64,000 nt of DNA, from the NCBI GenBank assembly GCA_905178155.1, contig CAJINV010000003.1, positions 816,517 to 880,516 on the forward strand, given 5' to 3'. Shown piece after piece: positions 16,475 through 59,819 of the stretch. The stretch comes from Amoebophrya sp. A120 (lineage: Eukaryota > Protista > Dinoflagellata). The notes under the pieces were generated by a model, which saw nothing but the letters and a program-made list of their open reading frames with translations, did no database searches and was not told the DNA's origin. The first letter of the stretch is position 1; every line of letters begins with the position of its first letter. A program made the translations under genes and the position numbers.

Positions 16475-18365
16475 ATGATCACCGATTGGTGCACGAATGG
16501 TCGTGGTCCTCTCGTAGTGCATATCGTGCGAAAGTACTTTTCTAAGCTCCTGCCTGAGTGAGAATAGAAGTACATCAAAATTGCAGTCTGCACTAGTCGC
16601 AGCTGCTTCTTGCACTCGATAACTCCAAGACCGCACGTCGTCGCGATCGTGCAATGATCGCTAAGAAACGAAAAGAGAAGGCACTACAAGTATACTAGAT
16701 CCTACCAATAGCAATACTAAATTATGACTTCCCATAAAGAGGAATAGCAATAGGTACTACTGTGAACACACACAAGTAGATAAACCAGACAACTACAATT
16801 GATGAGCAAAGACGATGAGGTTAGTTCGTTGATAGCAAGCCCAGCGTCTGAAAAGGACATGGACAAATACGAGCGAAATGCAAGCAAAGTGAAAAGCATT
16901 TTCTTGAAAAAAAGGAACACAAGAGGAATGAGTTTCGATTGGGTTCTCGCAGTGTTCTCTTTGCCAAACAAAAAAAAAGCCATGGTGTGAAGAGAGGCAG
17001 TCTGTGTCTACTAGTCGTGTTGTTACTCAACCCACTTCATCTTCAACAACGCCAGCAGTGGCAAAATATAAATAAAAGCAAAAAGCCGCTGCAAGTCAAA
17101 CTAGCGTATAACTAGCGACGATGTAATTGTATAAATTACACGCTAAATAATGTAAATGAAAAGTGTATGTTGATGCTCGTCCTTGTCCTTCTACAATAGA
17201 CTTCGGCTGTTGCATCGATCCTTTGTGCCTAGGCAGGTGATGATCACCTGCCTAGGCACAAAGGATCATTGTTAGTATCTACTGAGCGAGATGAAGTCAT
17301 TGACTTTGACCATGTTCTCTGTAATCGCACCAAATATGTTAATGTTTCTTTTTGTTGGCAGCATACGCGTCGACTCCAGGTGAGACGTGAAAACTCGGTC
17401 CAGGAGAAGTTTGTAAGTTGCACTACTAAGACGAGCACTGACGACGATGAGCTACAACTACTAGTAGTACGCAAGAATTCCTGTTGAACAGTCTTGTATC
17501 TTCATGAAACGCAACGCATTGCGATCTTTCAAGTGCATCGCGGTTGCGAGTGTCGGTAAAAAATGAGAAACTTGCTCTTGTGACGCCGATGAAATGAAAC
17601 AGAACAAGGATCACCCAAAATCAAAAAATCTCAGCCGAAGGCAAATAATCTTCAACTAGCCATGATCCTCAAATGTAAGTAGTCTCTTCGAGGCTCGCTT
17701 TATGTACTATTCGGATTCATGTATATAAAAATGAATTTGTATTGCTGCAGCTCGGTCCGTCTTGATGGCGATGGTGGCGCTTGCACGCAAAATGTCGGTG
17801 ATGAATCGTCCTACTTATTAGAATCCACGAACAAAATGTCTATACAGTTTGAACAGTGCAGAAGCTTCTATCATACCTACTCCTGCTACTGTATTTTATT
17901 ATTTTGTGCATCAAGTAAACTCGAACTCATCGCAACAAAACCTGACAACTTTCCCAAAAATTAATCGTGACGGCGCGGCCAAGGAGCAACGTTCTAATAT
18001 TTGTCATTCTTAACCTTAGCGCGCATCTTTATTTTCTGACGCTTAGAGGTAGTACAAAGATCCTCATCCTTTTTATTTCGTCCTCCGTAGCCAGCATTAT
18101 TTTTATCCAAGGAGGTCCTGCTGGGTTTTTACCCGTAGAAACTGCAGCAAGTAGAGGAACTTACCACCACTACAGCCAGCTACGGCAGCAAGAGCGACAA
18201 ACCGCACACGACTACAACTAGACTTCACGAAACCAGATTTGTTATTTCCAACCTGACATCAGTTTATTTATTGCTGCAGAGATCGCATATATCATTCTGT
18301 TTACAAAGATGATTATAAAGAACTACACTCCAAGCCGCTGGTCTCCAGGGCTGGTTGCCCGCACT

Positions 18366-21300
18366 ATGTTCGTCGTCGCGTTCGAAGTTCCGATTGTCTT
18401 AGGCGTTCTTTTTTCGCGTGTGGCGGCCCTCTCGGTCTCGAGTGCCGGAGCGGCGTCGAAGTCGAACCATGTTGGGGTGCTGCAGATAAAGAACGTGTAC
18501 TTCTACAAGACGAAGCTGACAGAGTACGAGGAGAGCGCGCAGCTAATCGAAAAACTCACGGCCCGCGACATGTATCCACAGTAAATTTTCCGTACACGTA
18601 CAACTAAAAATGCACTTTCTACATGACAAAAAGCGTCACAAGCGGCATGCTCCAAGGTGGCGAGAAGTGTGATGAATTTTTTACATGTGCGGGATTAAAT
18701 TTCATGTGGATAACATGGCGCTCCATCTTTCGCCGCTCCGATACCGCACCGGCATTCAGCAGAAAAAAGACGGTCTCGGAAAGTCGCAAAGCGAAAAGTG
18801 GTATGCTTCTCGCGCAAATGGTTGCTATCGTTACACTATGCATTGCAAAAGTATCGCACTAGTATCCATTGCATCGCGAGTTTTCATTTTCTCGAGAACA
18901 AAGAAAAGCAAGGGCAACTTGTCATGTTAGTTCAGGTAGACAGTCGGGCTTGTCGTGCATGATTGCAATTACTACGAGTAGTGCGATCCTTTTGGAGTGC
19001 ATATACATCTGGAAAGCGCAAACCGTTACAGTGCTGCCCGCTGTCGAGGCGCGAGGTTCTACGCTACCCAGTGTGGTCACGCTGTGGTTTCTCGTGGAAC
19101 TATTAATGGATGGGCACCACTACGACCACATCACCGGCAGTGCGGAAAGACGCTGGAAACTGGCACTACCCCAGGCACTCACAAAAGTCCTTGAAGCGCA
19201 CCACCAGCAGCCCCAGCCGCTGGAGACTCTTGCGGCTGCAATTCACGAAGGCAGTGCTGGGTTTACTCTGTTTGACGGGCAGCAGCTGCGCCAGCTAAGA
19301 GAGCAACCGATGAGAAGTGCTGGCAGGCGTCGAGGAAACGAACAACCTGTAGCGAGATGGCAACGCCAGGAGCCGGTAATCCAGGAAGAGCAGGAGGTGC
19401 AGATTTTGAACCGGCACTTGGCCATTTTTGAGGCGGACCGCGCGTTTCAAGAAGCTGTGTTGGGACCAGAAGGAACAAGTGTCGGCCGCTCGGGCAAAAT
19501 ACCCCTTCACAAGCGCATCACTTTCATCAGTGGCCCTCCTGGAAGCGGCAAAAGTGTACAGCTGCTTGCGCTTCTGACCAAGATCGAGGCAGAAGTACCG
19601 GAGGCCGTGGGCAAGGGCCAGGTAGTCCTGCAGTACCACACCCAAAGCGAGCGGCTACGGCAGGACATTGAGACTCGGCTGCAGAAGCACTACGCTGTAG
19701 TGCCCGAATCTTTCTCGGGCTCGGACAACTCGTCTGACGGCGAGCAGAAAGCAGATGGAACAACTTCGAATGAGGCTATGCTAGTAAAACCGCTCCAAGG
19801 ACACGGAATCTCTGTACAACCTGGGCCACTTAAATTGTCGGCACTGTCACCGTATGCGCTGCAAATATGTCTGAGGCTGGAAGGATGCGAACTTGTGGCG
19901 CGCGTTTCACAGCACACACAATTCTCCCATGCATTGGCAGGAAAAGATGTCCGCTGCCACTTCCTGTCTGTCGCTGTCCTCACCAAAATGGGGGTGATTT
20001 GCCATGCCGATTAGGCGTTGCGGAAGCTTCTCGAAATGTGTGACGCTAGGGCTTCCATGACAGTCCTTCTATGTCAAGTAAAAACAGCTTGACACTCTTC
20101 CAGACCCAGACATATACTTATTTGCAATGCATAAAACGAAGCAGGAGGAGGGACTACTTGACGCGGTGGAGAAACAGCCTCTCCACGATTACCAGGGCGC
20201 GGAGGAGTACAGGAATAGTTGGGGCAGCCGCGGCCTTATGCATTGCAAATGTGTCTGGGTGGAGCTGGAAGGTTGCAACTTGCCATGCGAGATCTCGATC
20301 ACAAAAAAATCTGTGTTGCATGAACGCCACAAGCTACTCACTTCTTGTTAGGCAAAAGTCGGCTTTTTTATGCGGCATAGGCATGAGGAAGGTCTCGCAA
20401 AGTCTGTGATGCTTTTGATGTGTGCATTCCCGATCATCATCATGCATGTGGACGTGGTCCGCGAGATGCATGACAAGTCTTGCATTCTTGTTCGAGACCC
20501 GCCAGACGCATTTGCACTTGATGGGCCTTCTAGATTTGTATCAGATGACTGCCGCCATCTGTTTTGACCTAGACCTCTTCGCACAAGAGGAAGACGGAGG
20601 CCTGCGCGGCCCTCGGAAAAAGTGCAAGAAACGCATCAAGAGTAGCTTCTCTCGGAAGGTCAACAACATGGCTGCGCATCTCGGTGACAACTTCGCCTCG
20701 CATCTGGCGGGCGCGTTTCTGGCATTTTCCTTTTGGCGCAATTCCGCCCAGAAAACTGCGCCGGGCCCGTTGACACGGTGGTCGAAAGCCTACGAAGGAG
20801 ACAGCTCCTTTGCGACGAACCTCAGAAGGATCTTGAAGGGTGCGCAGATGGCTTACATCGCGATCGACGAAGCCCAGAATCTCTCGCCAATGGCCTTGGC
20901 GCGCTACCTCGACTTTGCCCGGCGACACCCTACACTCCGCCTGGTTTTCGCGTTTGACCAGAATCAGCAGCTTTTGGGCGGTTTGAACGACAAGCGCCTG
21001 TTTGTGAGCGAAATGGTGAAGCGCGACCTTTATTCAAGAAATAAAGAAACAGGAAGCGACTCTGCTTCGCAACGTGTAATCTGGGAGACCCAGCTTCCGG
21101 GGGTCTGGCGCTCTCCGTCACGCCTCGTGCCGGTTCTCCAGGTAATTGCCACCATGCGCAAACGCTTAACGAGCCCGCGTACTGGTGGCGCGGGTCCAGA
21201 CCAGAAGTTTCGTAGCGCCTACGAAGGGCGCGAGGACGTAGAGGGTAGTACGAACAGCGACGGCCCCGTGATCGTGGCGCTTGAGTTGAACAAGGGCCAG

Positions 21301-24154
21301 ACTAGTTTTGCCGATATCAAGAAACAATTTGAAGATGGCCCGCAGCCATCGGAAGGTGAAAGCGGTGCCAGGCGTCGTGCTGGGGGTACAGGGGTGTTGC
21401 GAAATGCGCAACGCACGAAGGGGATGACTGTGCGCAAGGGAAGTCGGATTTTGAAACACAAAAAGAAGGCAGGCGGCGCCCGCGTGAGTCAACGGCGTAG
21501 GGTAACAGTGAGGAGGGAACGGAAGCGGACCGTTTTCGGGCGCGCGGCATCTTCAGACGAGGGAGAACCTGCGTCTGCGAACATCAGCAGCACTAACGCT
21601 AAGGTCGACACCCTCGACAGCATGCCCTGGATCTACCTCGATGAAGACGGGGCGAAAAATTGGGACAGCGATGCGACCAGCCTTTCGGCCCTGCAGGCAC
21701 AAGGCCAAGAGTGGCCCGTCGTTGTTGTCGCGGACCCACATGAAATCCTGAGTAGTCGCAATGACGGCCCGGCCGCGGTGCGCGAGCGTGCCGACGGGCT
21801 CGCCAAGCTGTTTGTCGCACTTTCACGGGCGACAGAGCGCGTTCTCATATTGACGAAAAATGCGGCCCGCCTTCAGCAGGCTCTGGCACTGGCTCTCTCC
21901 GTGGGGACGCAAGACTTCGCGGTAGCGAGAAGCGCTGCGCAGCTCAGAGAGATTCTGAAGAAAACCCGGCGCAGCGCCCGCACGTGGGTAAGCTCCTTCG
22001 CCGAGTATTTGGCTAACGAGCAAACGCAGGAACAGGCGAAAGCCAGCTTTGTGAAGCACCTGCTCGACGGCGAAGGCGGCGCCGCAGGGGAGCGCCCCGC
22101 GCACTGGAGCAAGAAGTTCCGCGCGTTTGGCGACAGGTCTCTTGACTGCATTGTCGCGAGGATGCTGCGGGACAAAGCCTCCTGGCATTTCGCGGAAAGC
22201 CCGCAGGATGCCGCGTGGAAGGTGTTTCGCGATTTAGTAGCCGAGCAGGACGAAGCAAAGCGCATAGAAGACGAATCCTGGTCCTGGGTTGCGGAAGCCG
22301 GGGAGGCGGCAAGCTTTATCGGGTTGCAGCGTGATGAGACTTTCAAGCAGAGCAACCTGGCGAGCGAGGAGCCTGTTGGCGAAGGTGATGGTGGCCGACC
22401 TGGCCCTGCATCCGGGCCACCTGGCGGGCAAGGTCCTGACGGCGGAAACGCGGGCGACGAGGCGGCTGCGGCTCGTGAAACGGCGCCTGTCGAATTCAGT
22501 GAAGGGCAAATAGTCACTATTCATGGGCTCTTATCAAAACCGGAGTTCAATGGCAGACTAGGGCAATTGGGCCTCTTCTCCACCTTAAAAGACCGCTGGC
22601 AGGTACGCCTAACCTCTGCTGCTGGAGGGCAGGAGCCGCCCATACTACTAAAGCCCGATAACATAAGCGCGGTGTCTGTTTATATCGATCCCGAAATTCC
22701 AGCGGCGCACACGCACTGCAAATGGGTGCGTGAGTTTTTCGCTCAGACGCTCGAACTTCAGAAAACTTGGAGTGCGGGCGCGAACTTGCTACAGGCGAAA
22801 AACATCGGGCCCATCCTCGAAATCCTCCAGAAGGTTTTCGAAAGCCGTCTAATGGCGTACAAGGCTGATGGCTACACTTCGATAAACTATCCGACGCCGC
22901 TTTTGCATCCAGCGAGAAAATGCTTCCCCCGGCTGGAACCCAAATCGAAAGAAATTCAGAAGGCGCTGCTGTTGAGCAAGCAAGCGAGGACAAAAGCACA
23001 GGAGCAGGGGAGCGGACAGCTCGGAGTTCAGTTTCGCGGTCCTAGCGTCGAAGATAGCATTAGGTTCTTAGAACTTCTAAGAAAAGAGATGGAAGAAAAG
23101 CCTCAGGAATTGAGGAAAGAGCAAAAAGACAAGTACGGCGAGGGGCGGGAGGACGCAGATGAAATAGACACCGGGCTACGGGATTTCTTCCATAAAGAAT
23201 TTCAGCGGCTTCGCGAGATCGCGATTTTGGAGATGGTGCACCTGAACGACCTATCCTGTGCAAAAGAAAATGAAAAAGTATCGTACTCGTATAAATGCAA
23301 GTCTTGCATTACAAATTAATAAATTCTTTTCTTGAGGTAAATCCGCATTACAAATTCTATTTCTCCTCGGGCACAGCCAGCATCTGTCCAAAACAGCCGA
23401 GGGCCAGGATGACACCCTGAGGACGACCACAGGGGGTCTGTCTCAACGACGACGACGATGACGATGCTGGGAAAATTTGTAGTGCCTTTATACGACGAGT
23501 ACAATACTGGAATACTTTTACTTTTGCAGTGCATACGACCCTCGTCAATCCGAAGCCTACCCACCGGAGGCCTCGGAGCCAATACAAGCTGTCCGCCTCT
23601 CCGGCCTTCAAGGTTCTCCGGAGCTGGATGGGAAGATAGGGCTCTTGCGGAGCTTCAATGCAAAAAGAGGGCAGTGGGTGGTGGAAATGATTTCCGAAGG
23701 CGGTCAAAAAGTCGAAGCATTTTTCAGGCCAGAGAATATTGAAATAATCACCGACAGCACAAATTTCCGAGAGGTCGAACAGGCAACGGAAGAGCCCGAG
23801 CAGCCAGCGCAAAAGGCCAAACAGGCAGGCCGGCGAGGGGCAGCACAACAGGAAAGGCCGGCGGTGGCCGATCGCTCGGTGCCGAAAGAACGCGAGGACG
23901 GCAAATGCCGAGCTCAAGGTAAAGCTAAAGGGAAGAGGGGGCCGCGCTCCCGCAACGGAGAGCGACCACCCCCTGCCGCAACGGAGAGCTCCCGCAACGG
24001 AGAGCTCCCGCAACGGAGAGTTTGCAAGGACGGGCCGAAGTTAAAGGGATCCTTGGGTACGATACAGGAGCGCGGATGTGCAGTAACGATAAATCTAGGT
24101 GGGGCACCGGTAACGGGCCGAAAAGCTCTCCTGATGCTCGGATTTGACGTTTAG
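18366..24154 (+). CDS. Signal-peptide-like N-terminus, RelE/ParE-like domain, superfamily-1 UvrD-like helicase, two SH3-like repeats
   Basis: After removing 5 introners: hydrophobic N-terminus, KWYASRANGCYRYIWK...LWFLVELLMDGHHYD, Walker A GPPGSGKS (19532-19555), IAIDEAQ, FDQNQ, WRSP, QAQGQEW and LFVALSRA; stop at 24154. An upstream in-frame ATG exists at 18309. Confidence 0.75.
18573..18712. mobile_element. Introner family I (TATCCACAGTAAATTT TIR)
   Basis: DR acatg; ARDM|ALHL. Confidence 0.87.
18837..19003. mobile_element. Introner family C
   Basis: DR tacac/tacat; CYRY(I/T)|WKAQ. Confidence 0.88.
19853..20133. mobile_element. Introner family A
   Basis: DR decayed, caccg/aaacg; ALSP|KQEE. 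Confidence 0.85.
20237..20523. mobile_element. Introner family A (degenerate)
   Basis: DR ggcct; right end ATG; SRGL|LDLY. Confidence 0.87.
23252..23535. mobile_element. Introner family C with internal expansion
   Basis: DR cgacc; HLND|PRQS. Confidence 0.9.
23947..24020 (+). repeat. Four copies of 16-bp CTCCCGCAACGGAGAG
   Basis: Units at 23947, 23973, 23989 and 24005. Confidence 0.85.
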
Positions 24155-39100: not shown

Positions 39101-42100
39101 GGAGCGCGAAAAGCTGCTCTCGGAGCGGCTGCAGACCGAGAAGGACACCCTGACGGCCGAGGTCGCGAAGCTGAAGCAGCGCGGCGAGCAGCTGCAGCAG
39201 ATGGTACGAGAGTTTGCACAACTCGTCCCCCTCCCCCTCCTTTGTCTTGCCTAGTGTAGAAGTACTGTTTGAGCTTGTTCCGGAATCTGTGATGCAAACA
39301 GGAGTCCCACAGGGAAGCACTTGGTCTTGGTCTTGGATATGGATTTGTGGTTTTGCATGAGAAATGAGTCTGAGGGGGGGTTTTGCACTTTCATAGATGT
39401 ATTTGGAGCAGCAGAATTCCCTGGCCGCCGCTGGGGAGCAGGGGCACCAGGCGAGCAAAATCGCCGACCTAGAGCAGGAAAAGCACGAGCTCGAGCGGAA
39501 ACTCACCCGTTTGGAAGAGCGGGTGACCAGCATGACGAACCAGATCCAGAAACTGCAGAGCGAAAATGAAGCGGAACTGACGAAAATGCGGGAGGACCAC
39601 AAAACCGCCCTTGTGCAAAGGGCCCAGGAACACACGAAGGAGCTCAAGAAAGCCACCGAAATGTATGAGAACGAAAAGCAGACCCTGGTGCGGGAAAAAC
39701 AGGAGATGGGCCAGGATATGACGAAAAACATAAAGGATTCGGTCATCGCCTGCGAGGAGGAGCGGCTTACCAAAGAGTACGAAGCAAGGCTGGACGACCG
39801 AAAAAAAGAGCTGGAAGCCGAGAATGAGCAGGAACTGAGCGCCGCGAAGAAACGATACCACGAAGAAGCCGAGCAGCTGAAAGAGAAGTTGCAGCAGGAG
39901 ACCGAAAATTTGCGGGAAAAGCTCAAAGAGCGCGAGGCGAACGCGCTGCAAGCGAAGAAGGACGATTTGGTACACCAGAACGAGGAGCACCAGAAGAAAG
40001 TCGAAAAGGAATTCGCAGACAAGAAAGCCGCGTTGGAAGCGGAGGCGGAGAGAAGGAGAGCCGAATTGGAAAAAGAATTCGCTAAGAGGTCGGAGGAGCT
40101 GGATGCAAAATTCAAGGACATGGAATCGAAGCTGCGAGCAGCCCTTGCAGAAGAAAAACAAATGTTCGAACAAACTTGCGAAGGCAACGTGCGCGCCAAG
40201 CTCAAAGCAGAACTCGACGCTCTGGAGGCGAAAAAGACGGAAGTGGCAGGGGAAGAAAAAGCCATGCAGGAGAACCGGGCGAAACTGCAGACCGAAACAG
40301 AAACACTGCAGAAGGCGCAGGAGAAACTGGAGCAAGAGACGACAGCGGTGAAAGCGCGCGAAGTTACCGTGCAACAAAAGTCTGACACGTTCGAAGTAGA
40401 GCTCAAGGCGAAGTACGAAAAACTCTGCCAGGAGCGCGATGCGGCGGAAGTGATGCTGAAGAAGCAGATCGAGCAGGAGCGCAAACTGCTTGCGGAAAAG
40501 GAGCAAAAGTTGGAAACCCAGTTGGAGACCGAAAAGGCGAAGCTCAAGGCCGAGCACGAACAGCAGCGGAAAATTTTATCGACGGAGTTTGAGACCAAAA
40601 AGAGCGCCTTGGAGAACGAGTTCAAGAGGAAGGAGCTCGAATTGGAAAACGAGGTCGCACAGCGAAAAAGCACCCTGCAGGCAGACAACGACAAGCAGCT
40701 TGCTTTCGAAAGTCAACGGCAGCAGAAAGCAGGCGAGGCGGAGCTGGCCGAGCAGCGAGTGGTGTTGGAGGACGAATTCCGGGCGAAGCAAGAAGAGCTG
40801 CAGCAAGAGAAGCAAAGGGAAAAACAGCAGGAGCTCGAGGAAGAGCGCACGCGGCTTCGCGTCGAGGTGTTCGAAAATGCCGACGCCGAGACCAAGCAAG
40901 CACTCGCTGAGGCAACGGAAGCCACGCGGGCGGCGGAGGAGGAGCGAGACCAGAAGGCCCTTGTGGCGGAAAAAAACAAGATACAGTACATGAACGTGGG
41001 CGAATACTGCTTCAAACAGCTCAAGCCGTTCGCCATCCAGCTGGCGGCCAAGGAGGGGAAGCAGCTTCCGGCTTGGAAAAAGATGACCCCCACTGAAATC
41101 ACTGAACAAGCCCAGCAGAATCTTCTGGCAGCCGCGTCAGTAGCAGCAGCAGCAGCCGCAGCATCCAAAGCAGGAGGAGCATCTACAACAACCGGGAACG
41201 CCACGCCGGGGGGACCCTCCGCTGCGACGAAATCCGCCGGACCTGCATCATCCTCGTCAACTGCCGCTGCGGCCGCACGGACTCCTCCAGCCTTTGCGGT
41301 CGCCCCGGCGAGCAGATGTCTCGGCGGTGGTGGAGGAACCGCTGGCGGCTCCTCGTCCTCTTCCTTTAATCCGGCGGCCCGCGGTGGAACAGCGATTCCA
41401 GGCTCTGGCTCGTCCGGAGTACTAAAAATTCCTTCGGAGCAGAACAACAAGCGGGCAAGTGAAGCTGCAGACCCAACAACCACCGCGGGTGGAAGTACAA
41501 TGGGAGCCGCAGCTGCAACGGAAAATACAAGTGCAAAACGCGCCAAAATTGACGTTGCGCCACCTGCAGCAGCTTCTGGCTCTGCCGGCACGACAACCTC
41601 CAGCACAAATAACGACCAAAAGCAGGTTGCTAATATTACTGCCTCCTCCTCATCTGCTCCGGCAGTGGCCGCGTCGTCTTCAGTAATAAACGCGGCTGCT
41701 GGAGGTGCACCCGGTACAACTACCTCTACGACAGCACAAATGTCCTCTTCCTCGGTAAAAATGGAAACAAAGGCCGTGGATGGCAAGGTGGTCGCAGCGA
41801 GCGTGCAAGCGCAACAAGTTCGGGTCACCCCTGAAGGCCAGGTCTTCGCACAGCAGACCAGTTCTACGTTCAGTGCCAGTGGCGGCGTAGCTGGTGTGGC
41901 ACAAGAACAGCTCCTCGGTCGTGCAGGAGGACCAGGGGGACCAGGAGCCGATGTCTCAACAACGCCAGCGAGTTCATCAACTGCAGGAGCTAACGCAGCT
42001 GGTGTTGCCCAGAACATCACCATGATAACCGACGCAAATACCGCGCCTGAGGCTGCAGCCGCAAGAACTGCAGCCGAGATGACCCCAGCACCAGCCGCTG

Positions 42101-43488
42101 ACTCCGCCTCTGGCCCATCTGATCATGCTGGACAACATCCGAAGGTGGAAACGAGAACCGAGGAACACCAGCAAGAAGACGAAGGTCTCGAGCAGGACCA
42201 CGAAGAAGAAGCGGAAGACTTCGGGGGCGATGAAGACGAAGATGCTGATGAAGCTGAGGACAATGCTAACCAACAAGAAGAGGAAGTAGACCCGAAGAAC
42301 CTGGAGGACCAGGAGCAGGCCGCTTCAGGAGCAGAACAAGGGCAACGGGAAGCTGATGAAGTCGATGAAGAGCACGACAATGAGACTGGTGCTGATCTCA
42401 ATCCTGAACAACAGTTGTCACCTGCTGATGGTGATGAGGATGTTGACATGAATCAGCAAGAAAACCAGTTGGAGGCCGCGAACGGAGCCGAGGACGAGCA
42501 GGAGGTTGTCGAGGAAGAGGAGGACGACGACGACATGGAAGTAGGAGTCGAAGAACCTGCCGACGGTGCGCAGAGTGGCGAACAAGTGGACGACGAGGAT
42601 GGAGATGACAATGACAATGACAATATTAGCGACATAACAGACAAGGACGAGGAAATGGACGTCGAGCGAGCTGATGTGGTGGAGGGGAATGATAATGAAG
42701 CGGAAGCAAGTCCGGAAGTTGTAGATGGGGACGTTGTCGTAGAGGAGCAAGATGAAGATGATGAACAGGTAATTCCTGAAGATGAAATCGCGTCGCCTCC
42801 TTCTCCTGAAGAAGAAGGCGAAGGTCAGGCAGCTGCAGCAGTAGAAGAGGACCCCCGCGTGGTAGAAGAAGAAGGAGCAGGGGGAGATGAAGCGGACGGC
42901 GACGGCGCAATGGAAATAAACGACGAAAATGCTACTGCCGCAGTCGCGGAGGAAGAGCATGACCAACCTGTAGCAGACGACGGAGCGGAGCACCAAGGTG
43001 TATCTCCCCCCGTAGTAGAGCATCAAGCCCAGGACGACCGCGATGACCCTGCACGACCAGCACAGGAGGGAGCTGCTGCAACAAGCGAGATTCTGAAGAG
43101 CGGTGACCACCAATTAGCGATAGCCTCGGATGACCCAGAAGTGGAAGAGCAGGCGGGCGACGACGCAGTTGATGAGACGCACCAGGAACTAAAAATGGAG
43201 GATGAAGATGAAAATGTCGTTTTTCACTCCGCCCAAGCCAGTCCAGTTCACCCCGGCAACGGCCCTGTTCAAGTCGGACAAGTGATTATTTGTCCCCTCA
43301 CGGGTGAGGAACTCATCGGTGTGGCCGAAATAACTGACGACGACGAGGATGTTGAGAGCGAGCAGGGCAAGAACGAACAACATGATAATCGTAATCCTAA
43401 TCCTCCAGTCGAAAATGACGCGGTCGCAGCAGCGCAAGATGGTGCCCAAGAACTTCTTGCCGACGCAAACCACGACCAAGTTGAGTAA
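27133..43488 (+). CDS. Very large coiled-coil protein with low-complexity linker and acidic C-terminal tail (TPR/Mlp nucleoporin-like architecture, tentative)
   Basis: E/K/Q/L heptad-rich exons join in frame across 20 introners and several GT-AG introns. The final 4-kb exon (39397..43488) has a KRAKID NLS-like motif and a D/E-rich tail. Confidence 0.7.
27255..27547. mobile_element. Introner family A
   Basis: DR atgca; VNMQ|QESQ. Confidence 0.92.
27614..27924. mobile_element. Introner family H2 (TATGAAAGCCTCAG..TGGAAATCCTCAAAGTGGAAAT TIR)
   Basis: DR tgttc; LNLF|RENE. Confidence 0.93.
27995..28135. mobile_element. Introner family C
   Basis: DR aacag/gacag. Confidence 0.9.
28395..28543. mobile_element. 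Introner family C (its DR happens to supply GT-AG)
   Basis: DR gaagg; ALAK|ELRD. Confidence 0.93.
28599..28849. mobile_element. Introner family A
   Basis: DR tgcac; QKLH|TSET. Confidence 0.92.
28894..29044. mobile_element. Introner family C
   Basis: DR agcag; GNKQ|ELAE. Confidence 0.93.
29192..29514. mobile_element. Introner family J (TATC..AAGGAAAAATCCCCCCTCCCCATAT TIR)
   Basis: DR cgcga; RQVA|SLEH. Confidence 0.92.
29586..29820. mobile_element. Introner family B
   Basis: DR cgacc; AIRD|LQEE. Confidence 0.94.
29883..30146. mobile_element. Introner family A
   Basis: DR caagg/catgg. Confidence 0.9.
30982..31219. mobile_element. Introner family B
   Basis: DR cttca; RHLQ|SLLE. Confidence 0.92.
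31273..31486. mobile_element. Introner family D
   Basis: DR gaaga/gagga; LKED|CRLL. Confidence 0.9.
32416..32565. mobile_element. Introner family C
   Basis: DR ccaga; LIQ|IERI. Confidence 0.92.
32649..32932. mobile_element. Introner family K
   Basis: DR cgacg; RARD|ADLL. Confidence 0.9.
33103..34274. mobile_element. Long (1172 bp) TIR element/intron, family M
   Basis: ~50-bp imperfect TIR (…ACGC(T/C)CGTTAGCAT…GGTGA(A/G)TTTG(C/T)AGTGAATTT); flanked by actagtagc and a 46-bp exon duplication. Confidence 0.8.
35112..35273. mobile_element. Introner family I
   Basis: DR decayed, agcag/ggcaa; EQKQ|QLES. Confidence 0.83.
35505..35666. mobile_element. Introner family C
   Basis: DR gcagc; RVQ|LQDA. 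Confidence 0.93.
35858..37005. mobile_element. 1148-bp insertion in a canonical intron (35803-37191), flanked by a 39-bp perfect direct repeat
   Basis: cttgttgatgaccacgtccacgacgtcgacctgctggcc at 35819-35857 and 37006-37044; GC-rich, degenerate minus-strand coding-like content. Confidence 0.75.
36310..36420. mobile_element. Nested 111-bp MITE-like hairpin
   Basis: ~40-bp inverted repeat (CTTCA..GG.TGCACTGTGCTGCT.TGGCGG.TTTTGGTG); flanking DR cacccc. Confidence 0.7.
37310..37614. mobile_element. Introner family H2, opposite orientation to 27614-27924
   Basis: DR decayed, acgcg/gtgcg; DLRR|EKAK. Confidence 0.9.
38562..38823. mobile_element. Introner family A
   Basis: DR gccgt; EAAV|AGEQ. Confidence 0.93.
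38897..39046. mobile_element. Introner family C
   Basis: DR ggcac/ggcgc; EDWA|QKRA. Confidence 0.92.
39205..39395. mobile_element. Introner family F (degenerate, TAC start)
   Basis: DR gatgg/gatgt; LQQM|YLEQ. Confidence 0.83.
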
Positions 43489-48211: not shown

Positions 48212-48927
48212 CTCGATCGGCGCTCCAGGTCAAAGAATTTCTTCCTATTTTTATAAAAAGGACCACCACCACATCAACAAGGAATGTAGTTGCGTACTGA
48301 TTCTTTTACCACCAAGCAGTAGTTATTTCGCGGGAGTATTCATTGCGGACGTCGAACGAAGGGAAACGGAAGCAAAAATTAATAATGTATGATGAACACG
48401 TGTACAACCTGACTGTGTATTGTCGGGAGAAGTGCCGAAAAATCACCGCTTTCTCACGTCACCTATACGACTTTTTGGGTTGTTCTTATTGCGGAACGAA
48501 GCGGAGCCTTGTTGTTCTTTGATCCTGTTGGAGAAGATGATCCAGGAATTTGACGCGCCTTGTTCTTTGACAAATTAAATCATCGACGCAGCTCCACGAC
48601 CGCCCAAAGCCAGACAAGCCACCACCACGACCACACCGAGTACAGGATCTTTGCAGTTTTACTTTTGCGAACCCAACTTTGTAAGTGCAATTGAAGAAGT
48701 TTCTCTGATTTGTGAGGGACGACAACCAAGGCAGAAACCTTCAGTCTGGGTATTGCGTTTACGTGAGTCGGAGACGTCAAAGAAATGATGTTCATTGTGT
48801 TGTAGTTATTGCAGATCGTGATCGACGTAGTTCACCTTATTTAGTACTTATACCAGCCTCCCTCCTCAGCGGCCTTTGTTTGTTTTATGATTTATTGATA
48901 TTGACCACCCGGACGACTAGCAACATC

Positions 48928-50040
48928 ATGACGCCTTTACTCAACTCCTGCCGAAGTGGCGGTGGTGCTTTCCAAGAAGCTGCGGGAAACCGGTTTTATT
49001 CCTTTTCGGCAGTTTCCACGATTCATCGCGCACCACCGCTTCCTACGCACGTACTAGCACCTCCCGCTAGAAGCGACCAAGGAATGGGAAAACGGCGGCT
49101 CAGCATGGGCGGGACTGATGCTGTCCTGGCGCAGCTGAGGAGAACTTTCTTATCGACGCCATCATCTTCAACCTCGTCGTCGTCTAGTAGAAGTACACAC
49201 GCACGAGCATTTGCGACTGGTGCGTTAGATCATGGCTTGGACAGACAACATGTTGCGCCGCGTGCCAAGAAACTACAGCAAGAACTACATGGCCTTGAAC
49301 TACAACCTGAAAGGGAACAAACCGGTCAAAGAAAATCTAAATCAAGTTCACGACAACATCAACTGCGCCATCCAGGTGGCCATTTTCTCAACTACACACA
49401 ACAGCAACATAACTGTTCCCGCCGGTATTTCGGCACGTCAGCAGGAGGATCAGACGAGACAACTGCTGGAAACACGACGGAGGGCGGCAAACCCAAACCT
49501 CCTGTCACCGACTACTACTCTCTGCTAGGACTTCCGCGCAAGTACCTTCTGACCTCAACCGAGCTTGACCAGGCTTTTCGGGAAACGCAGAAGCGGCTCC
49601 ATCCCGACAAAATCGCCCATCTGGCTAAGGATGCGGCGGAGAAGGCCCGACTGGAGGACCAGAGCAGTTTGGCAAACGAGGCCGCGCGGGTTTTGCGGTC
49701 CCCGCTTGAGCGCGCCAAGTACTGGCTGGAGCTGCACGAAGTGCCGACGCTTAAAGAAAGCCAGCGCATCCAAGACCCCGCACTGCTGGCGGAAATGATG
49801 GACTTATACGAGGAGCTGGACGACAATGCGGCCGACGCCGAGATCGTGGCCAGAATGAAACAAGACAACGACCAGGCGATCGCAGCAGTCGTTTCGACTA
49901 TCGACCGGCTCATTCAAGCGTCGGACTTTGTCGCGGTGCAGAACCAAATGGAAAAGCTCTCGCTTCTCAACCGCCTTGCGGAAAAGTTGCGCGCCGTTGA
50001 AGACGCGGCGGAACGGAACGGGGAAGCAGAAGAACGATGA
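48928..50040 (+). CDS. HSCB: Fe-S cluster co-chaperone HscB/Jac1/Hsc20 with long N-terminal targeting extension
   Basis: DYYSLLGLP...FRETQKRLHPDK...SSLANEAARVLRSPLERAKYWLEL...DPALLAEMMDLYEEL. First ATG at 48928; start uncertain. Confidence 0.9.
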   Translation: MTPLLNSCRSGGGAFQEAAGNRFYSFSAVSTIHRAPPLPTHVLAPPARSDQGMGKRRLSMGGTDAVLAQLRRTFLSTPSSSTSSSSSRSTHARAFATGALDHGLDRQHVAPRAKKLQQELHGLELQPEREQTGQRKSKSSSRQHQLRHPGGHFLNYTQQQHNCSRRYFGTSAGGSDETTAGNTTEGGKPKPPVTDYYSLLGLPRKYLLTSTELDQAFRETQKRLHPDKIAHLAKDAAEKARLEDQSSLANEAARVLRSPLERAKYWLELHEVPTLKESQRIQDPALLAEMMDLYEELDDNAADAEIVARMKQDNDQAIAAVVSTIDRLIQASDFVAVQNQMEKLSLLNRLAEKLRAVEDAAERNGEAEER

Positions 50041-50584
50041 CCAACATGGGAGAGTGACAATATTTGCTTCTGTGCCGCCGCTTCGAGAGCGTCAACGATA
50101 AATGAAATTTTTTCAGGTTCTTCTGATGTCTGAAGGTGAACGCATTGGCAATGAGTTTCACTCACGCGACAAACAATCTCGAGTCCGCGACTTGGTCGCA
50201 CATATCATGTGTCTACAGCGACAAAGTTACAAGTGCTCGTGCACGATTCGTCACGACCTGCTGGTCTTCGCTCCAGCTGGTTGCTTGGAAGAGCAGATGC
50301 AGAGGAAGATTTTTATGATGAAATACAAATATTAGAAAAGTGTTCTTGTGTAGTTGCAACTACAACTACACGCAGCTCGTCTACCATTTTGGACCTTCAA
50401 TCTTACTAGATTCAGAGACAGAGCGCAGGATGAATTCTGAGCGAGTATGAAAACATCCGTTCAAAAGACGCTTTGAGTAGTCTAGCTTTTAGGACCCACA
50501 CAGCCGGGCTTATTCCTGGCTCTTGCTCTGCCGCAAGAAAGAGAAACAAAGTCAAAATATCCTTATCCATGCACAACGCTAAAG

Positions 50585-53500
50585 ATGCGGCCTACTCAAC
50601 ATCGTCATCCCTGTGCAGCTTCAAGTTCTTTGTCTTTCCGTGCTGCCGGTCTCGTGGTTTTGTTTTTCAGTGGTGTTTTCGTCCAGCTTTTGTTTATTTG
50701 CCCCGTCACTGTGCTTGCAGACGAAGTACACGTGGAGCAGCAGCGGGTTCTTGATGCCAGCTGCCGTGACCACCCCGGAATTCCGCCACCGCCACACAGG
50801 AACTGGAACGAATTGTACAAGGATGTCGTCGCTTTCAATCAGACGTATCTCTTCGACGGCGGGGGCGCCGGGGGAAAAAAGCCACCCGGTACTAGCGCCG
50901 CTGATGAACAACCTGTGTCGTCGCTGCGAGAGTTGAATCGCTTCGTCTTGTCGCGGGAGGACATTTTCCACGGATTTCCGAGTGTCGCCGCTGCGAAAAG
51001 GTTCAACCTGACTCGGCATCGAAAAGCAGAGCACGATGGAGAAAAATCTCTTCATGAACAGAAAGACAGTGATGTGGATATGAATACCAGTACAACTTCT
51101 TCTACGCGGGTACTCCACCCGAACGTGTTTCCGGGCACCTACACCTACTGGGAGTCGAGGTTTCTGCCCCTGTACGAGCTGGCAGAGACCATTAGCTGTA
51201 TCAACTGCAAAAATATCTGGGTCTGGAAAGTTAGAACTTGTGATGCTAGCTTTGGACTCTAGAAAAATCTGTATTGCATCCCCAGCAAGAGGAGTCCAGT
51301 TTCTGCTACGCGGGGAGGCCATTTGTCATGCGCAATAGGCATCAAGAAGCGCTCAGAAAATCTGTGATGCCAGGGAAGACATCACAGACGTCACGGGCCA
51401 TGTAAAATCTGCATGACAAGTTCGCATCCTTCCAGACCCAGACATATTTACAGTTGATAAGCTGCGTGTTCGCTCGATTGTGTGTCCGGCTGATCATGGC
51501 AATTTTGCTATCCTGAGTAAAAACGTATCCACACCAGAGCTGTAATGCAGATTTGCAAAGAGAGGAAGACTTGTAATGCGCATCCCCATGAGAGCCATTT
51601 CCAATCGTGTTTTGGGATTTGTGATGCTGTGAACAGGATGAGCAGACGAATCTGTGATGCGGCTGCACTTGCTAACCCGCACTACACTGCATAGTGCAAC
51701 TTGTCATGCGTGACTCACAAAACTCCTAGGTTTGTGTTGCAAAATCCCCATCCTGACTCTGGTGTGGCTACGTTTTTACTCAGGATATTTGCGGCGCGAC
51801 CGCGCGGAGGTTGAAGGCGTGCTGCAGCGGTTAAAGGACGACGTGGTGTGGAACGAAATCACTTTTAGTCCGTGGCCGGTCATGCATCTGCTCTACAAAG
51901 CGCAGGTGGCCACCGCCACCCTCCGCAGCCCCCGGGAGCCAAGGCTTTTAACCCTCGCAACGGAGCGCGCGACCAGAAAAGGAGCTGGCAAGGTTTTGGC
52001 AGATGCAGCCGCCGAAGGAGGGGGAGGTGATGGAGAGCGATCAGATCAAGAGCCCGATAAAATTTCAGGCACAGACAGAAGAAATACGGAGGAACTTGTC
52101 GCCGGAGCTGCTTTGTCCTTTCACGACAGTCCTGTCGTCGTCGAAGAGGCAGCGGCAGACTCACCTTCTGTTACCTCTAGTATCTCTACCGCGGAGGCTG
52201 TGGACGAAGATCTCGAGTCATTCGAGACGGTACTTTCCTCACGTCGGTCCCTGGCCGGTCTGATCGCCACGAAAGTTGACAACTGTTTTGCAGTGTCTGG
52301 GCAAAGCTGGCTGCGGCGCGAAAGCGATTTCGGCAGCTACGCGGCGAAGTTCCGCGATATATTTCCACCGATAGGTGGTGCAGACACAGATAGACAAGCT
52401 ACAAATAGTGAAACGAGATCAGGTCGTTCCTCTTCCTCTTTCTACGCCGGGCTCGCCTCCGACTTCCTGCTCAGTGTGCACAGCTGGTTCACTTCCGAAA
52501 CGACATCAAAAGATGAGCCCAGCAAAGCTAAGGCCCGCACTATGCCGTTTCCGTTTTTTGACACGCACCAGTTCTTCCGCCGGTTAGTTGGGGACTTCTG
52601 TCTCGAATACTTGTACACCTACGCGCTGATTCAGATGGCGATGCACGTGGAATTTACGAATGTGACCCCCGGGTTCGTGCTGCGCTGGGTCCAGCGGCTC
52701 CTGCACTACCCGAACCTTGCCGGCGTCGACGGGCTCTTCAGCAACACCGACAACGTGGCCCTGCACAAGGACGACGAGCTCCTGCTCCCGTGGGAGGGGG
52801 AGGAGGACGAAGAGGATGTCATAAGCGCCATCGGTTCCGCCACGAGCGGCAATGCGAAGTTCTTCCGCATGCTCGCCGCGGTGTCCAACGCTGCAGGAAA
52901 AAAAGACGACTCGAACAGTACTGCTTCCTCGTCGTCAACCGCAGCCGCGACAGAGTCCACCTCTGGGCGAGTGGAGTATGTCAAGTACGGTGTAAAGCAC
53001 GCACTTCCCTGCATGCGCCGAACTCGTAGTACTGGGAACACAGGAGCGTCAGGACGAAGATCTACTTCACCGGGCGACGCGTCCAGTGGTAGTGTGGCGG
53101 ACGACGAAAAATATTTTATAGAAGGAGAAACGGTGATCATCCGACATGATCATGGACCGAAGAAAAATCGCAGCGTACCCTCGTGGAAAGGGTGTTTTTT
53201 TTCCGGGCCGCGCCCCGGCCGAGGTAAGAGCGCTCGACGACCAAAACGCGTGGGCGCTCGTGGCCAGACGGGGAGAGTGGTTTCATGCGTCCAGCAACCA
53301 TGAAAACTAAGCACCTGGGGCCCCCAAAGCGTCCGGCCATTGTCGGCCTTTCCCATCTCCAGCACTGCTCGCATAATGTGCGCAGTGAACACTGCCACAC
53401 TCTGCGAAAAGCTGCGCCATTTTTTCGGTCCGTTAAAAAACAAACCCGCTCCGCGAGGGTGTGCTGCGATTTTTCTTTGGTAGATGATCACTGTCGGCGA

Positions 53501-56500
53501 TCGCCATTTCTCCTTCTATATATTTCGAGGACGAGTTTTTCTTCGCGCTGCGGCGCTACGTCGCGGGCGCGTACGGTAGCAGTCTGGGCTATTTTTACTC
53601 GGTCGAGCTCCACTACTGGCTGGCCAAGCTCACGGAAAAGGAGTTTCGCATGAAGCTGGGGGGTGTGGACGTCGCCGCGTACTTTGACGCGCCTAACCGG
53701 GTCGTGGTGGATTCCTTGGGAGCGGAACAGGATCAAGACCAACTGACTTCTGCTGAACAAGTGGTTGTATCATCTGGCACGACTCCTACTTCCAAATCCA
53801 CAACATCAAATTCGACTGTTCTAACGAGGCTTGAAGTAGAACAAGACGATGCACAAAGTGGTGAAAAAGATGAACAAATGGTCGAGGTTGTACAAGAGGA
53901 GCAATTTTCGGATCAGGAGCGGTCTGCCCTCCAAAAACTGCTGAAGGGCATACACGACCTGTGCGAAGCCTTTGGGCTCCCGTACGTGCTGGCGCAAGGC
54001 ACCTTGCTCGGGTCTATGCGGCACCACGGTCTGATTCCATGGACGGGCGACGCCGAAATCGGTGTTGATTACAGCTACATGCCATTTTTTTTCGTTCTTG
54101 CACTCCTACAATCCAGTCACTTCGCCCGTTTGTCGTTTCTGCACGCGGAGTTGCAGCTTTATCTGCTGGGTGGCGAACGGCAAGCGCAGGAGGACCACAC
54201 GCGCACGCCTCCTGAAGATGAAAGGTTCCGAAATAGTCTTGTGGTGTACAAAGCGTACTACAAGCAGTTGCTCGAAGCTGGTGCAGCAGCTGTGCCGGGG
54301 AACAAAAAGTTCTACTCGAGGACACCAGCAGGTACTACCCCACTTTCAACAGCGAAGACGGAATCCCAGTCACAGTTCTTGGCGCAGCGCTACCGCCTTG
54401 CGTCAATTCGTGGTCCAGCTGCACGACGGCTCATCATGAACGATCGTGAAAATAGAGCCAAAAATTACGATTCAGACAACCCCAAGAACGGCGTCGGAAA
54501 TGGTGCAGCTTCAACTGAACAGGCTCCGGCAGCAGTTCTTGTTTTGCCGAAAAAATCCAATTTTGAGTGGTTTGCGGGTGCTCGTGGACGGCTGCAAAAA
54601 GCGTTCGACATTTTTCACGCGCGCCACCAAGTTTTCTCGCTCTTCGTGTCGCGACCCTTCGCCCCCAAATTTTTCTACAAGGACCTACTGGTGGAGCTCG
54701 AAGAACTCGAAACAAGTCGAAACATGCACGCAGCTGATCCGTCAAAACAAAAACCTGCAACCTCTACTGAAAGTAGAAACGCCGTGGCAGATGAACAAGA
54801 CGGCGCAGCGACCATTTCCTTACCAAGCTTCCCAGATAGGGTGGATCTTTCCACGGCCACTGTAAATCAGTTGATCCGCGAGAAGAGTGCGAATACCGAG
54901 CAACACCAGCTCTCGACGGACGTGTCGGGATTTTATCACCGCTACCCCTACCTGGACGTGATGCCCACCTATTTCCACGAGGCGACTGCGGTGGTTGGGT
55001 ACACCTCGTTCATGTGGGGGTACCGCTTTCCGTTCACCTTTACGCTCTGCAAAAGTACCGCACTCGTATATATAATTGCGGTCACCCATGACAGATCTGG
55101 CGTCTTAGCTAATTCAGCATTACAAATACCATTTTTCCTACTTCTCGACAAATTATGTGTGATGCTATTTCTACTTAGTGTGATACTTTGTTTTGCAGTG
55201 CACAGCCTGGGTCTACCCGCGCAAGACCGTGTTCGTGGAAAACGTAGGGCCGATGTGGGCGTGGAGTCGCAGCTTCCGCGTGCTCCGCGTCAAATACGAC
55301 CGTGGCGCCATGTATGGATGTGTCAGAGTTGAAATCGACAAAGTTGAAATAGTTTGTCATGCATAAAACGGATACCAGTTAGACCTACAGTTTGTTGTCG
55401 GTGCATGACAAATTTCCCCGGTCCTGGAAAAGAGTCTGTCATGCGGTTTAGGGCAAAAGAGCTGCCTTCTGTCATGCTAGTTAGCAGTCCAACTTTTGAC
55501 CCTTACCAGGACTATAATCTGCCTCCCGTGGGTCCTCTGCAATAGAGTCACTTTTTGTATCGCATTTTATGCATTACAAATTTTTTCAACTTTGAAGATT
55601 TCAAACCTGACGCTTCCATACCATGAACCTGAATTCGGACCCGATGAAAACCTGCGTCGGGCACCACTTGTATGCATTGCTAAAGTGTCTGGTTCTGGAA
55701 GCTTGTGATGCTGGGTGGCGTATCATGGGGAGGCCGCAAGTGCTGGCTCAGCATGACAAGTTTCTGAGCTTCTAGGTGTTGCCTACTCTGCATGACAGAC
55801 TGCGTTTCTGCATGACAGAAAAGTGTGGCCACTCTAACTCTTGGGCAACGTGCATGACAGATTTAAGAGTCATGCCAGACAACCATGACAAACATGCACT
55901 CTTCCACTCTCAGACATTTTTGCATTTGATAACTTGTCGCACAAAACGATGGTGTCCACGGGGGATGTGCTACCCAAAAAAATGAACTGCTCCGATGTCC
56001 CCGGGCTCCCCGTGGCCGTGCCCTTCGCCAGCCCGGTTGCTGCCCGCACTGAAATGGCAAACGTCTTGCGCGGACGCGCGACTACTGACCACCTTGCTTT
56101 CTTGGATCGCGTGCTCGCGGTCGTGAAAATGGACCGACCGGCGGTCAAGGCGATTGGCTGGCTCTTTTCCCGCTGCGACACGCTACGGACGCGCCAGCGA
56201 GCTGGACAGCGGGCGACATCCACGAAGGACGACGGCGGGGAGGTTTCCGCAAGTGTAGGCGGTACAGGCCAAAAGGCGACGGACTTTCTCATTCACTACC
56301 AGCTCTGCTTCTTCGACCTTGTTGGTTTCCGGACAACTTCCACCAGAATTGCGAACCAAGATGAAGTGCCGGGCCCCGCTCATCAGACCGAGTCGGGATT
56401 GCAGAAGATGTTGACACCAACACCATTATCGGTGGAGCAGGTTGCTTCATCAAATTGCACGAGTTCTTGTGCTGGACAGCAAAATAGTCTTGAAGTTCGG

Positions 56501-57573: not shown

Positions 57574-59819
57574 ATGGGGAACCATCCTTGCTGCTGCCAA
57601 ACCGTCGCGAACGATCGCATCGCGGTCATGGCAAGATGCGGAAAATTTGACAAGCTGGCGTACACGAAATACCTATACCTTTTGTTATTCTTTCACCGCT
57701 TACTTTGGCATCAGTTTTGAAAAGTTTGATGAGTTGTTCTGTGCCATAGCCATTGGCAAGATCTTCGACATAATCCATTTCCAGCACATCATTTAAGACG
57801 TAAACAAAACCACGCCACCAGGCATCCGGGTTTGTTGCTCGTCCCCTGCCCGTGTATCTGTGTGCGGATCGGGGAAGTGAGTACGCGGCTGCAGGAGACC
57901 ATCGTGCGGTGTGAGACCAAAACGAAGGACAACGTTTTCGTGAACATGGAAGTGTCCATCCAGTACGAAATTCTCCGCGACAAGGTGTACGACGCCTTCT
58001 ACCGGCTGTCGGAGCCCCACGTGCAGATCAGTTCCTACGTCTTTGACGTGGTGCGGGCGGCCGTGCCCTTGCTTCTCATCGACGACGTTTTCGAGCAAAA
58101 GGAAGAAATCGCAAACCAGATCAAAGGCAGGCTCAGTGTGGTACTTACTTTCTTTTCAACACGGTTTCTATCAGGACAAGGACACTTCATGTTTTCTTGG
58201 CATTTTAATGCTTCGTGTTGTATGTCTATGACTATGTCGCCTGATATATTCGTTTTCGTTTCCTGTATGGCTATGGTAGAAGAAGGAGTGGATGACCCCG
58301 GTTATTCTGGTAGTTGTGGCACCTTCTTTCTCTCATGCTGCGAGGTCGACTTCGGAGTCACAGTCAACAGAGAGACAAACCTTAACCTGGGCAGCAAAGT
58401 AATACAGGTCATGAGCAGTTTCGGATTCAACATAGTGCAAGCCCTGGTTACCGACATCTCGCCTAACTTGAAAGTCAAGGATATGGCGTTCTCAAATGTT
58501 ACATTCTCAACTGTTACACGATTTGTCATGCAAAATGACCATGATCCGCAAGACGATCAAGCTGCTTCGCATGACAAATCATCGAATGGCTAAACAGCAT
58601 CTAAATCTGTGCCAAATTTGTGATGCAAGACAGACTTGCAAGCTTTCCCCTTTCCCTATCCCTATTGCTGTTTTTGCATGACAAATCCATGTAACTACAG
58701 TTGAGAATGTAACAGTTGAGAACGCCATAAAGGACGCCATGAATGAGATCAACGCCGCCTTCCGCTCAAAGCAGGCAGCAAAAGAAAAAGCAGAAGCCGA
58801 CAAAATCGTCTTGGTATAGTAATTTACTTCAAATTTTCGCAACAAGAAATCGTACATGCACTGCTAAACTTTCGATGGTTCCCCCGGAGTTGTGTTTTCT
58901 TTGTGTCGATGAAGTTTGTTTCTGTCTCTGTACCCTGTAGTGGGTCCCTTGTGCCATGGAGCGATAAATCGACCCGTGAAGATGATCATTCACGAAAGGC
59001 AGCAACTAAGCGCAAGTGCCGAATTTCAATTTTTATTTTCTTTGTGTCAGGTGAAACAAGCGGAAGCTGATGCCGAGAGCAAGTACCTGCAGGGCACGGG
59101 TATCGCAAAGCAAAGGAAAGCAATCGTGGACGGGCTCCGTGACTCGGTCGACTCCTTCACGACGACGGTGGGGGGGATGGCCGCCAAAGACGTCTTGGAG
59201 CTTGTGCTTGTCACACAGTATTTCCTTCTGTTTACTTCGTCAGCAGGCGCCCAGTTTGTGATGCTATTTCTCCTTTATCGCTCTGCTGAACAAGAAGCGA
59301 GCCAGATCGTGAAGAACAGTCAGAACTCATAGTACTTCTCAGTAAAACAAAAAATGCTACATTCATCAATCGCGACACGGCATCTTCAGGTACTTCGATA
59401 CCATGAAGGACATTGGATGTAGCTCACAATCCAAAACCATCTGTAAGAAAAGAATCACATCGCGTCTTTCCCCTCCGTTCGGTAAAATGTCGACTCGAGA
59501 AGTTTGCAATCACTTATAGTTTATCGTCTGCTCGTCTTTTGCTGGTGCATATGATATGACTGCTTTTGCATTCTGCACGGAGAAAACACGAACTTGAGAA
59601 GGAAAAATAAAGAACCTTCGAATAGATAAGGTGAAATCTAAATCAAATAAAATGGAGGACAGTACTACTACTAATTAGCAGTAGTGTGCGTTAGCCGTTA
59701 TGGGAGGACTGACAGATCTTCCTGCCATACTGATCGTGCCGAACAACCCCGGGGCCATTACAGACATCACGGAGGAGATAAGGACTGGATTCATGCAAGG
59801 ACAGGCCGGGAACGTGTAG
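57574..59819 (+). CDS. HIR: SPFH/band-7 hypersensitive-induced-response-like protein
   Basis: MGNHPCCCQTV...CETKTKDNVFV...YVFDVVRAAVP...VKDAMNEINAA...AEADAESKYLQGTGIAKQRKAIVDGLRDSV...VTQYFDTMKDIG...NPGAITDITEEIRTGFMQG; GT-AG introns plus one introner. Confidence 0.92.
58482..58729. mobile_element. Introner family B, opposite orientation to 3633-3869
   Basis: DR aagga; LKVKD|AMNEINAA in the conserved HIR motif. Confidence 0.95.

Follow-up and report, generated by a model that had tools for sequence, protein, structure and literature searches.

The locus described here, carried in a 64,000-nucleotide stretch (the window) of the genome of the marine dinoflagellate Amoebophrya sp. A120, a parasite of algae, raises the question of whether a eukaryotic parasite encodes a toxin-like nuclease domain joined to a helicase, where such a gene would have come from and whose RNA its product would act upon. 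The reading preferred here, given tentatively and at a little under even strength, is that of a spliced SF1 helicase of bacterial origin that bears a RelE-type RNase and is predicted to be exported to cut host RNA. Its parts are of unequal firmness, and they are discussed separately below. The features of the locus are collected in Table 1.

Table 1. Features of the RelE-helicase locus, in positions of the window.
Feature	Position	Strand	Details
Sequence 5' of the start	17686..18308	+	shares a spliced contig with the gene; 8 out-of-frame upstream ATGs
Six-exon gene	18309..24154	+	1553 aa; joints seen in public contigs; product is a deposited Amoebophrya A120 protein
Exons	18309-18567, 18713-18831, 19004-19850, 20137-20231, 20524-23245, 23535-24154	+	
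Recessed hydrophobic segment	18366..18422	+	residues 20-38; contains a Glu and a Pro; basis hydropathy
RelE-superfamily domain (likely)	18477..19135	+	residues about 57-170; interrupted by introns 1 and 2; two loop insertions
N-domain residues in invariant or near-invariant bacterial columns	R126 18829-18831, H164 19115-19117, Y166 19121-19123	+	
SF1 (UvrD-like) helicase	19511..21852	+	residues about 296-883; Walker A 19532-19555, Walker B from 20863, motif VI 21817-21831
Internal repeat copy 1	22486..22683	+	66 residues; 31.6 bits, 37% identity to copy 2
Internal repeat copy 2	23561..23752	+	matches copy 1
Introner 1	18568..18712	+	145 nt, 5-nt direct repeat; missing from paralogue-like contig of run X5
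Introner 2	18832..19003	+	172 nt, 4-nt direct repeat, 25-nt inverted arms; directly after the invariant Arg codon
Introner 3	19851..20136	+	286 nt, 2-nt direct repeat
Introner 4	20232..20523	+	292 nt, 6-nt direct repeat
Introner 5	23246..23534	+	289 nt, 6-nt direct repeat

When the six exons are joined, from the ATG to the stop, the translation equals the deposited A120 protein in every letter (100%). The helicase exon, used as a query, returns this protein (100% identity) together with a 985-aa paralogue, both encoded on one contig. The three peptide pieces quoted in the earlier note were located in the window, and they are joined once the first two introns come out. Contigs of public run X1, which is RNA by guess, cross all five joints (18567>18713, 18831>19004, 19850>20137, 20231>20524 and 23245>23535), and those of run X4 cross four of the five, with a 12-nt loose end compatible with the remaining one. 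Run X4 also contains a variant over 17855-22025, with about 2% differing letters, a 9-nt gap at 21065 and identical splice joints, which is another strain or allele. The contig sequence ahead of the ATG is taken to be the 5' untranslated part of the gene, with the qualification that contigs cannot reveal a start. Further upstream, a perfect palindrome occupies 17217-17267, its 25-nt arms flanking a single central nucleotide.

All five introns show a direct repeat of 2-6 nt at the joint, mostly non GT-AG ends and terminal inverted repeats with 14-23 matches out of 30 in the best register. Related copies of each occur at other places in the window (2, 16, 18, 13 and 25 blastn rows, respectively, self included). 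These are the features reported for Amoebophrya introner elements, namely inverted repeats, direct repeats that span the exon boundary, ends of non-canonical type and repetition in the genome (PMC7789003, in the portion consulted), from which the present introns do not differ; they are thus of a type already known, and the five introners proposed from the sequence are borne out. The five lengths are all of the form 3n+1, which may be chance. As for the timing of insertion, run X5 looks like DNA, since the gene appears in it unspliced, and it includes a paralogue-like contig from which intron 1 is missing, so that intron 1 was likely inserted after the duplication. The proposal that introners invaded the gene after its arrival is thereby upheld for intron 1, the one intron that this evidence covers. 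Over 18240-18840 of the same run, the gene has a depth of about 50 and the paralogue-like contig of 22-28, and words of the intron 1 family reach 20,000; a second near-identical gene copy is possible, although depth in this run does not measure copy number.

The N-terminal domain gave no direct hit in Pfam, PADLOC, NCBIfam or PDB sequences, and its assignment runs through bacterial proteins of Legionellales and Bacteroidota in which an equivalent domain also precedes an SF1 helicase. A 39-row profile of these bacterial domains reaches YoeB structures at E 0.0014, and at E 0.1 16 of the 39 members match ParE_like and four match HigB-like; judged from such profile matches, the bacterial domain is a member of the RelE superfamily. 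Identity between Amoebophrya and bacterial domains amounts to 12-27%. Profiles of the Amoebophrya and Legionellales-type domains line up in register along the beta2-beta3 hairpin, with E 0.0075 and 0.0028 (0.002 once the selected motif is taken out), and the register is kept more weakly with the Bacteroidota type (E 0.011) and with ArmD (E 0.17). Across a 63-row alignment, part of which had been chosen by an H-D-Y motif (20 rows of the Bacteroidota type and a few of the Legionellales type), the Arg and the His are invariant and the Tyr near-invariant. Glocal scoring along the protein gave its best value, among 41 windows, to the N-terminal one, with z of 2.2 and 2.6 for two Amoebophrya sequences and of 2.5 and 0.4 minus the selected motif, the last being that of the AT5.2 protein. 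Local HMMs of the bacterial domains do not lift the Amoebophrya domain above 1206 decoys; the two loop insertions interrupt the match. Single-sequence comparisons with ArmD yielded nothing for this domain and E 0.0026 at Walker A. Among the 30 language-model neighbours shown for the domain, ParE_like is the sole named family (rank 21, 0.85), which serves as a lead.

Structural models were computed for the N-domain of the paralogue, which is 87% identical. They are of low confidence (pLDDT 43 from four rows and 59 from 63 rows), and both comprise a helix, a three-strand meander and a helix. Foldseek found no meaningful match for either model, and VIA none for the four-row one. For the 63-row model, four RelE-family chains stand among the 50 rows listed by VIA, at Z 2.1-2.7, spanning the whole domain and tied with unrelated rows; they include RelE 3bpq (Z 2.7, rmsd 3.2 over 60) and YoeB 7v6w (Z 2.5, rmsd 3.6 over 60). 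RelE-family chains were listed only when bacterial rows were in the alignment. The hidden RelE-like domain announced by the earlier note is therefore recovered as a homology that passes through the bacterial family, and not as a direct family match, and the check for a RelE/BECR fold that it suggested returned the Foldseek blank and the low VIA scores just given. Taken together with the position of the domain ahead of a homologous helicase, the conserved register makes homology to the RelE superfamily very probable.

The helicase was recognised more readily. SF1 motifs I-VI are present and in order, as had been claimed, with Walker A at G303-S310, Walker B at 554-558, motif III at 584-589, IV at 634-637, V at 832-837 and VI at 872-876, and a long basic insertion occupies residues about 660-810. 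The scan of the 1553-aa protein against a family library returned no PF00580 hit and no TPR or ankyrin match, and PDB sequence searches with this protein and three further queries gave nothing useful except motif II of HelD (E 0.0037). PADLOC rows for AbiO, Nhi and Mad8 were rejected as evidence of membership, each covering single helicase motifs. For residues 57-900, every one of the ten language-model neighbours listed is a bacterial cluster of UvrD-domain proteins, 566-857 aa long (0.96-0.97).

The nearest family was sought by fetching ArmD with 120 listed relatives and by means of a short pattern, which matched 94 genome stretches. In 59 of the 94, the N-terminal domain is followed by a P-loop, and these come from Bacteroidota, Legionellales-type Gammaproteobacteria and others; later members were gathered by a full-length profile instead of the pattern. 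Five of eight bacterial proteins scanned carry ankyrin matches. RelE-like SF1 helicases, often ankyrin-tailed, occur in 59 of 118 Legionellales genomes, with up to 8 matches each, and in 12 of 81 genomes of another order, three genomes being unscored in these counts. The nearest family sampled is this multi-copy group of Legionellales and Bacteroidota proteins with ankyrin tails, and the resemblance to Legionella-type RelE-helicases that the earlier note had put forward holds in several comparisons. A profile-profile alignment of the Amoebophrya helicase with five Legionellales-type proteins reaches a probability of 98.7 (E 2.4e-16). An Amoebophrya profile finds matches in three of five Legionellales-type genomes, all lying in long frames or in fragments (E 8e-6 at best), and a 46-sequence Legionellales-type profile scores 57, 43, 55 and 52 bits on four long Amoebophrya proteins; this set includes a probable duplicate and a single row of the Bacteroidota type, and diverse profiles are more sensitive. 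At equal depth (five sequences), the medians of Legionellales-type profiles are 28-39 bits, against 8 or less for the Bacteroidota type, ArmD and UvrD/Rep. On the Amoebophrya proteins UvrD/Rep scores at most 4 bits and ArmD at most 10. In the reverse search, 35 of the 46 Legionellales-type proteins exceed 10 bits, against none of 88 others.

A helicase tree was built from 42 rows and 207 motif columns, with every second Legionellales-type row, two of which were dropped for lack of a Walker A match, and with two A25 fragments left out. The four Amoebophrya proteins fall inside the Legionellales-type clade (99/97), on a branch of length 2.7 that carries a long-branch warning. Grouping with bacterial UvrD/Rep was rejected (AU p 0.008), which places the enzyme outside the housekeeping helicases, within a comparison limited to their bacterial members; this was the criterion that the earlier note had set for itself. 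A grouping with ArmD was likewise rejected (AU p 0.015). Neither a grouping with the Bacteroidota type (p 0.13) nor monophyly of Legionellales without Amoebophrya (p 0.31) was rejected, and the groups for ArmD, the Bacteroidota type and Legionellales monophyly were chosen after inspection of the tree. The sequences compared are those of Amoebophrya and of bacteria, so that the transfer and its direction are what we infer. On this footing, acquisition of the gene from a Legionellales-type bacterium seems somewhat favoured.

Relatives close to the A120 protein are confined to the genus in the databases searched. Scanning 1.84 billion representatives with HMMER yielded six hits, all from Amoebophrya (two from A120, two partial ones from A25 and two from AT5.2), and word-index protein searches found the two A120 copies alone. 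A tblastn search of plasmids (with the A120 paralogue and two other relatives of the 1553-aa protein as queries) found no relatives, and neither did pattern scans run over contigs from metagenomes, viruses and genomes. In all five Amoebophrya proteins that cover the region, the N-domain lies directly before the helicase. Across A120, A25 and AT5.2 this domain is 22-48% identical, and R126, H164 and Y166 are kept. The high identity of the two A120 copies in this domain was rejected as proof of selection, as synonymous changes are also few (4 in 65 codons), and it may reflect gene conversion rather than selection. The last 70 residues of the paralogue match another frame of the homologous window DNA (21765-22140), and this tail, which begins just after motif VI, reads as a frameshift or a model error. 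In the AT5.2 model, residues 1-300 contain an RSN1_7TM channel piece ahead of the RelE-like domain; the model is probably two merged genes, possibly a fusion.

At the extremities of the protein, two further elements were examined. The earlier note had placed the start at position 18366, which is Met20 of the deposited model; this model begins at an in-frame Met 19 codons upstream, as does the paralogue, so the hydrophobic stretch is recessed, with 19 polar residues preceding it. Of all 19-residue windows of the protein, it has the highest hydropathy (2.03, the next being 1.23), and the corresponding values for the paralogue are 1.85 and 1.51. By hydropathy, the segment is a possible signal peptide or signal anchor, against which the Glu and the Pro within it count. 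Over 47 codons of the leader, the two copies differ at 11 non-synonymous and 5 synonymous ones. The leader is found in both A120 copies, whereas nothing equivalent is seen in the bacterial proteins, most of which begin directly with the first strand; the A25 and AT5.2 models, which are truncated or fused, show none. The C-terminal tail contains two copies of a repeat that has no PDB or Pfam match and that, by its pattern, may be SH3-like. Within the last exon, a 16-nt unit is repeated over 23943-24021 and is translated in different frames.

According to the preferred reading, the N-domain would be a RelE-type ribonuclease fused to an SF1 helicase, encoded by a gene acquired long ago from a Legionellales-type bacterium. 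The protein would be exported, and its translocation along RNA, powered by ATP, would feed the cutting of host RNA or trigger it. The gene would have arrived before A120, A25 and AT5.2 separated, and then been duplicated, fitted with the leader and new C-terminal tails and, lastly, invaded by introners. Gating of the RNase by the helicase is suggested by the fusion of the two domains and by the requirement of ArmD for its Walker A motif. That the RNase is live seems slightly favoured, and export of the protein is a possibility somewhat short of even. In the sections available of the works cited, RelE is reported to cut on eukaryotic ribosomes (PMC11980606) and the parasite to grow inside the nucleus of its host at a time when host transcripts are falling (PMC9478091).

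The same domains and the same bacterial origin would also suit a protein that stays in the parasite, either free or tethered to a membrane by its leader, and there turns a helicase-gated RNase on viruses or mobile elements, as ArmD does in bacteria. This inward role would be nearly as likely as action on host RNA, although taken singly it is somewhat unlikely. Against it stand the rejected ArmD grouping (AU p 0.015), the hydrophobic leader added in both A120 copies and the fact that the closest relatives are multi-copy, ankyrin-tailed proteins from intracellular bacteria. Activity itself is in question if the domain is a RelE relic that has lost catalysis, or else an alpha-beta look-alike, and does no more than bind RNA or ribosomes for the helicase. 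The weak direct scores and the two loop insertions would fit such a domain, the paralogue model that leaves the frame after motif VI hints at one copy decaying, and ParE toxins have the same fold without the RNase residues (PMC11980606, as far as its text was available); the retention of R126, H164 and Y166 in proteins so divergent in this domain argues against it, and this reading is improbable.

The bacterial origin, for its part, competes with descent from an old eukaryotic lineage of TRANK1-type RelE-helicases, of which the Amoebophrya protein would be a fast-evolving member, its likeness to Legionellales being due to shared ancestry, to transfer from protists to bacteria or to long-branch attraction. 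The branch of 2.7 with its warning is compatible with this, as are a plant cluster among the language-model neighbours of the N-domain (0.88) and the GC3 of the gene, which at 0.63 lies inside the 0.53-0.73 range of five other window ORFs, so that no compositional sign of a transfer is seen. Among the 1.84 billion representatives, however, no eukaryote other than Amoebophrya appeared at E 0.001, in a search whose two-sequence profile had low power and missed the Legionellales proteins too; bacterial clusters make up the whole list of ten neighbours for residues 57-900, and the TPR and ankyrin matches are missing. This descent is accordingly quite unlikely, and a gene of Legionellales type remains the preferred origin.

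Compared with known systems, the Amoebophrya protein shares with the Legionellales/Bacteroidota family the order of domains, the helicase motifs (the stretch that follows motif IV among them), the Arg and the His that never vary in the N-domain, the Tyr that seldom does, and the presence of several copies per genome. It differs in being eukaryotic and in having five introners, a 56-residue leader, two N-domain insertions, a longer linker, the basic helicase insertion, no ankyrins and two copies of a different repeat. ArmD (ARMADA type II, E. coli ECs_5264 / z5902) also has a RelE-like domain ahead of a UvrD-type helicase, whereas its helicase belongs to another clade (as the AU test and the bit scores above indicate) and it is encoded in a four-gene operon and has no leader. 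In the parts available of its description, ArmD is a cytosolic defence protein whose anti-phage role was tested and which requires Walker A (bioRxiv 2025.09.15.676423, PMC13463889); no armABCD neighbours were recognised among 17 window ORFs scanned. The RelE, YoeB, HigB and ParE toxins of type II toxin-antitoxin modules have in common with the Amoebophrya domain the likely fold, the basic hairpin Arg and the C-terminal His-x-Tyr. The Amoebophrya domain is distinguished by its fusion to a helicase, by the lack of a recognised antitoxin gene nearby and by RNase activity that is predicted. TRANK1 holds a UvrD-like helicase, and the 1553-aa protein differs from it in showing no TPR or ankyrin match. 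In print, as far as the texts were accessible, RelE-helicase fusions appear as ArmD and beside Tiamat, solely as parts of bacterial anti-phage systems. The accessible text of a survey of multidomain RelE proteins (PMC11980606) does not mention helicases, and that of PMC3710099 holds nothing relevant to such fusions. In the literature searched, which left subscription journals outside its coverage, no description of the Amoebophrya gene or of the Legionellales family was found, and identifiers of the gene are absent from the supplements checked of PMC9478091 (5 files) and PMC6176090 (10 files).

The fullest version of the preferred reading, in which a parasitic protist acquired its RelE-helicase from bacteria akin to Legionella, added an export leader and secretes a helicase-gated RNase to silence its algal host, is rather unlikely as a whole. 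If true, it would supply a first candidate, at the molecular level, for an effector behind the 'zombified host' state, and would draw attention to a multi-copy family of RelE-helicases in Legionellales that is undescribed. A spliced RelE-helicase, leader-bearing in A120 and kept in three Amoebophrya strains, is a testable candidate for the action of a bloom-controlling parasite on host RNA, or else for a bacterial-type immune enzyme in a protist, and the comparison has revealed a widespread Legionellales family of the same architecture.

Elsewhere in the window, a frame at 50486 also has a recessed hydrophobic leader at its start, and a 1363-codon open frame at 39397-43488 consists of charged low-complexity sequence. 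An HscB-like co-chaperone (48709-50037), a LicD-family piece (53488-55329) and a Band 7 piece (57733-58590) were also recognised.
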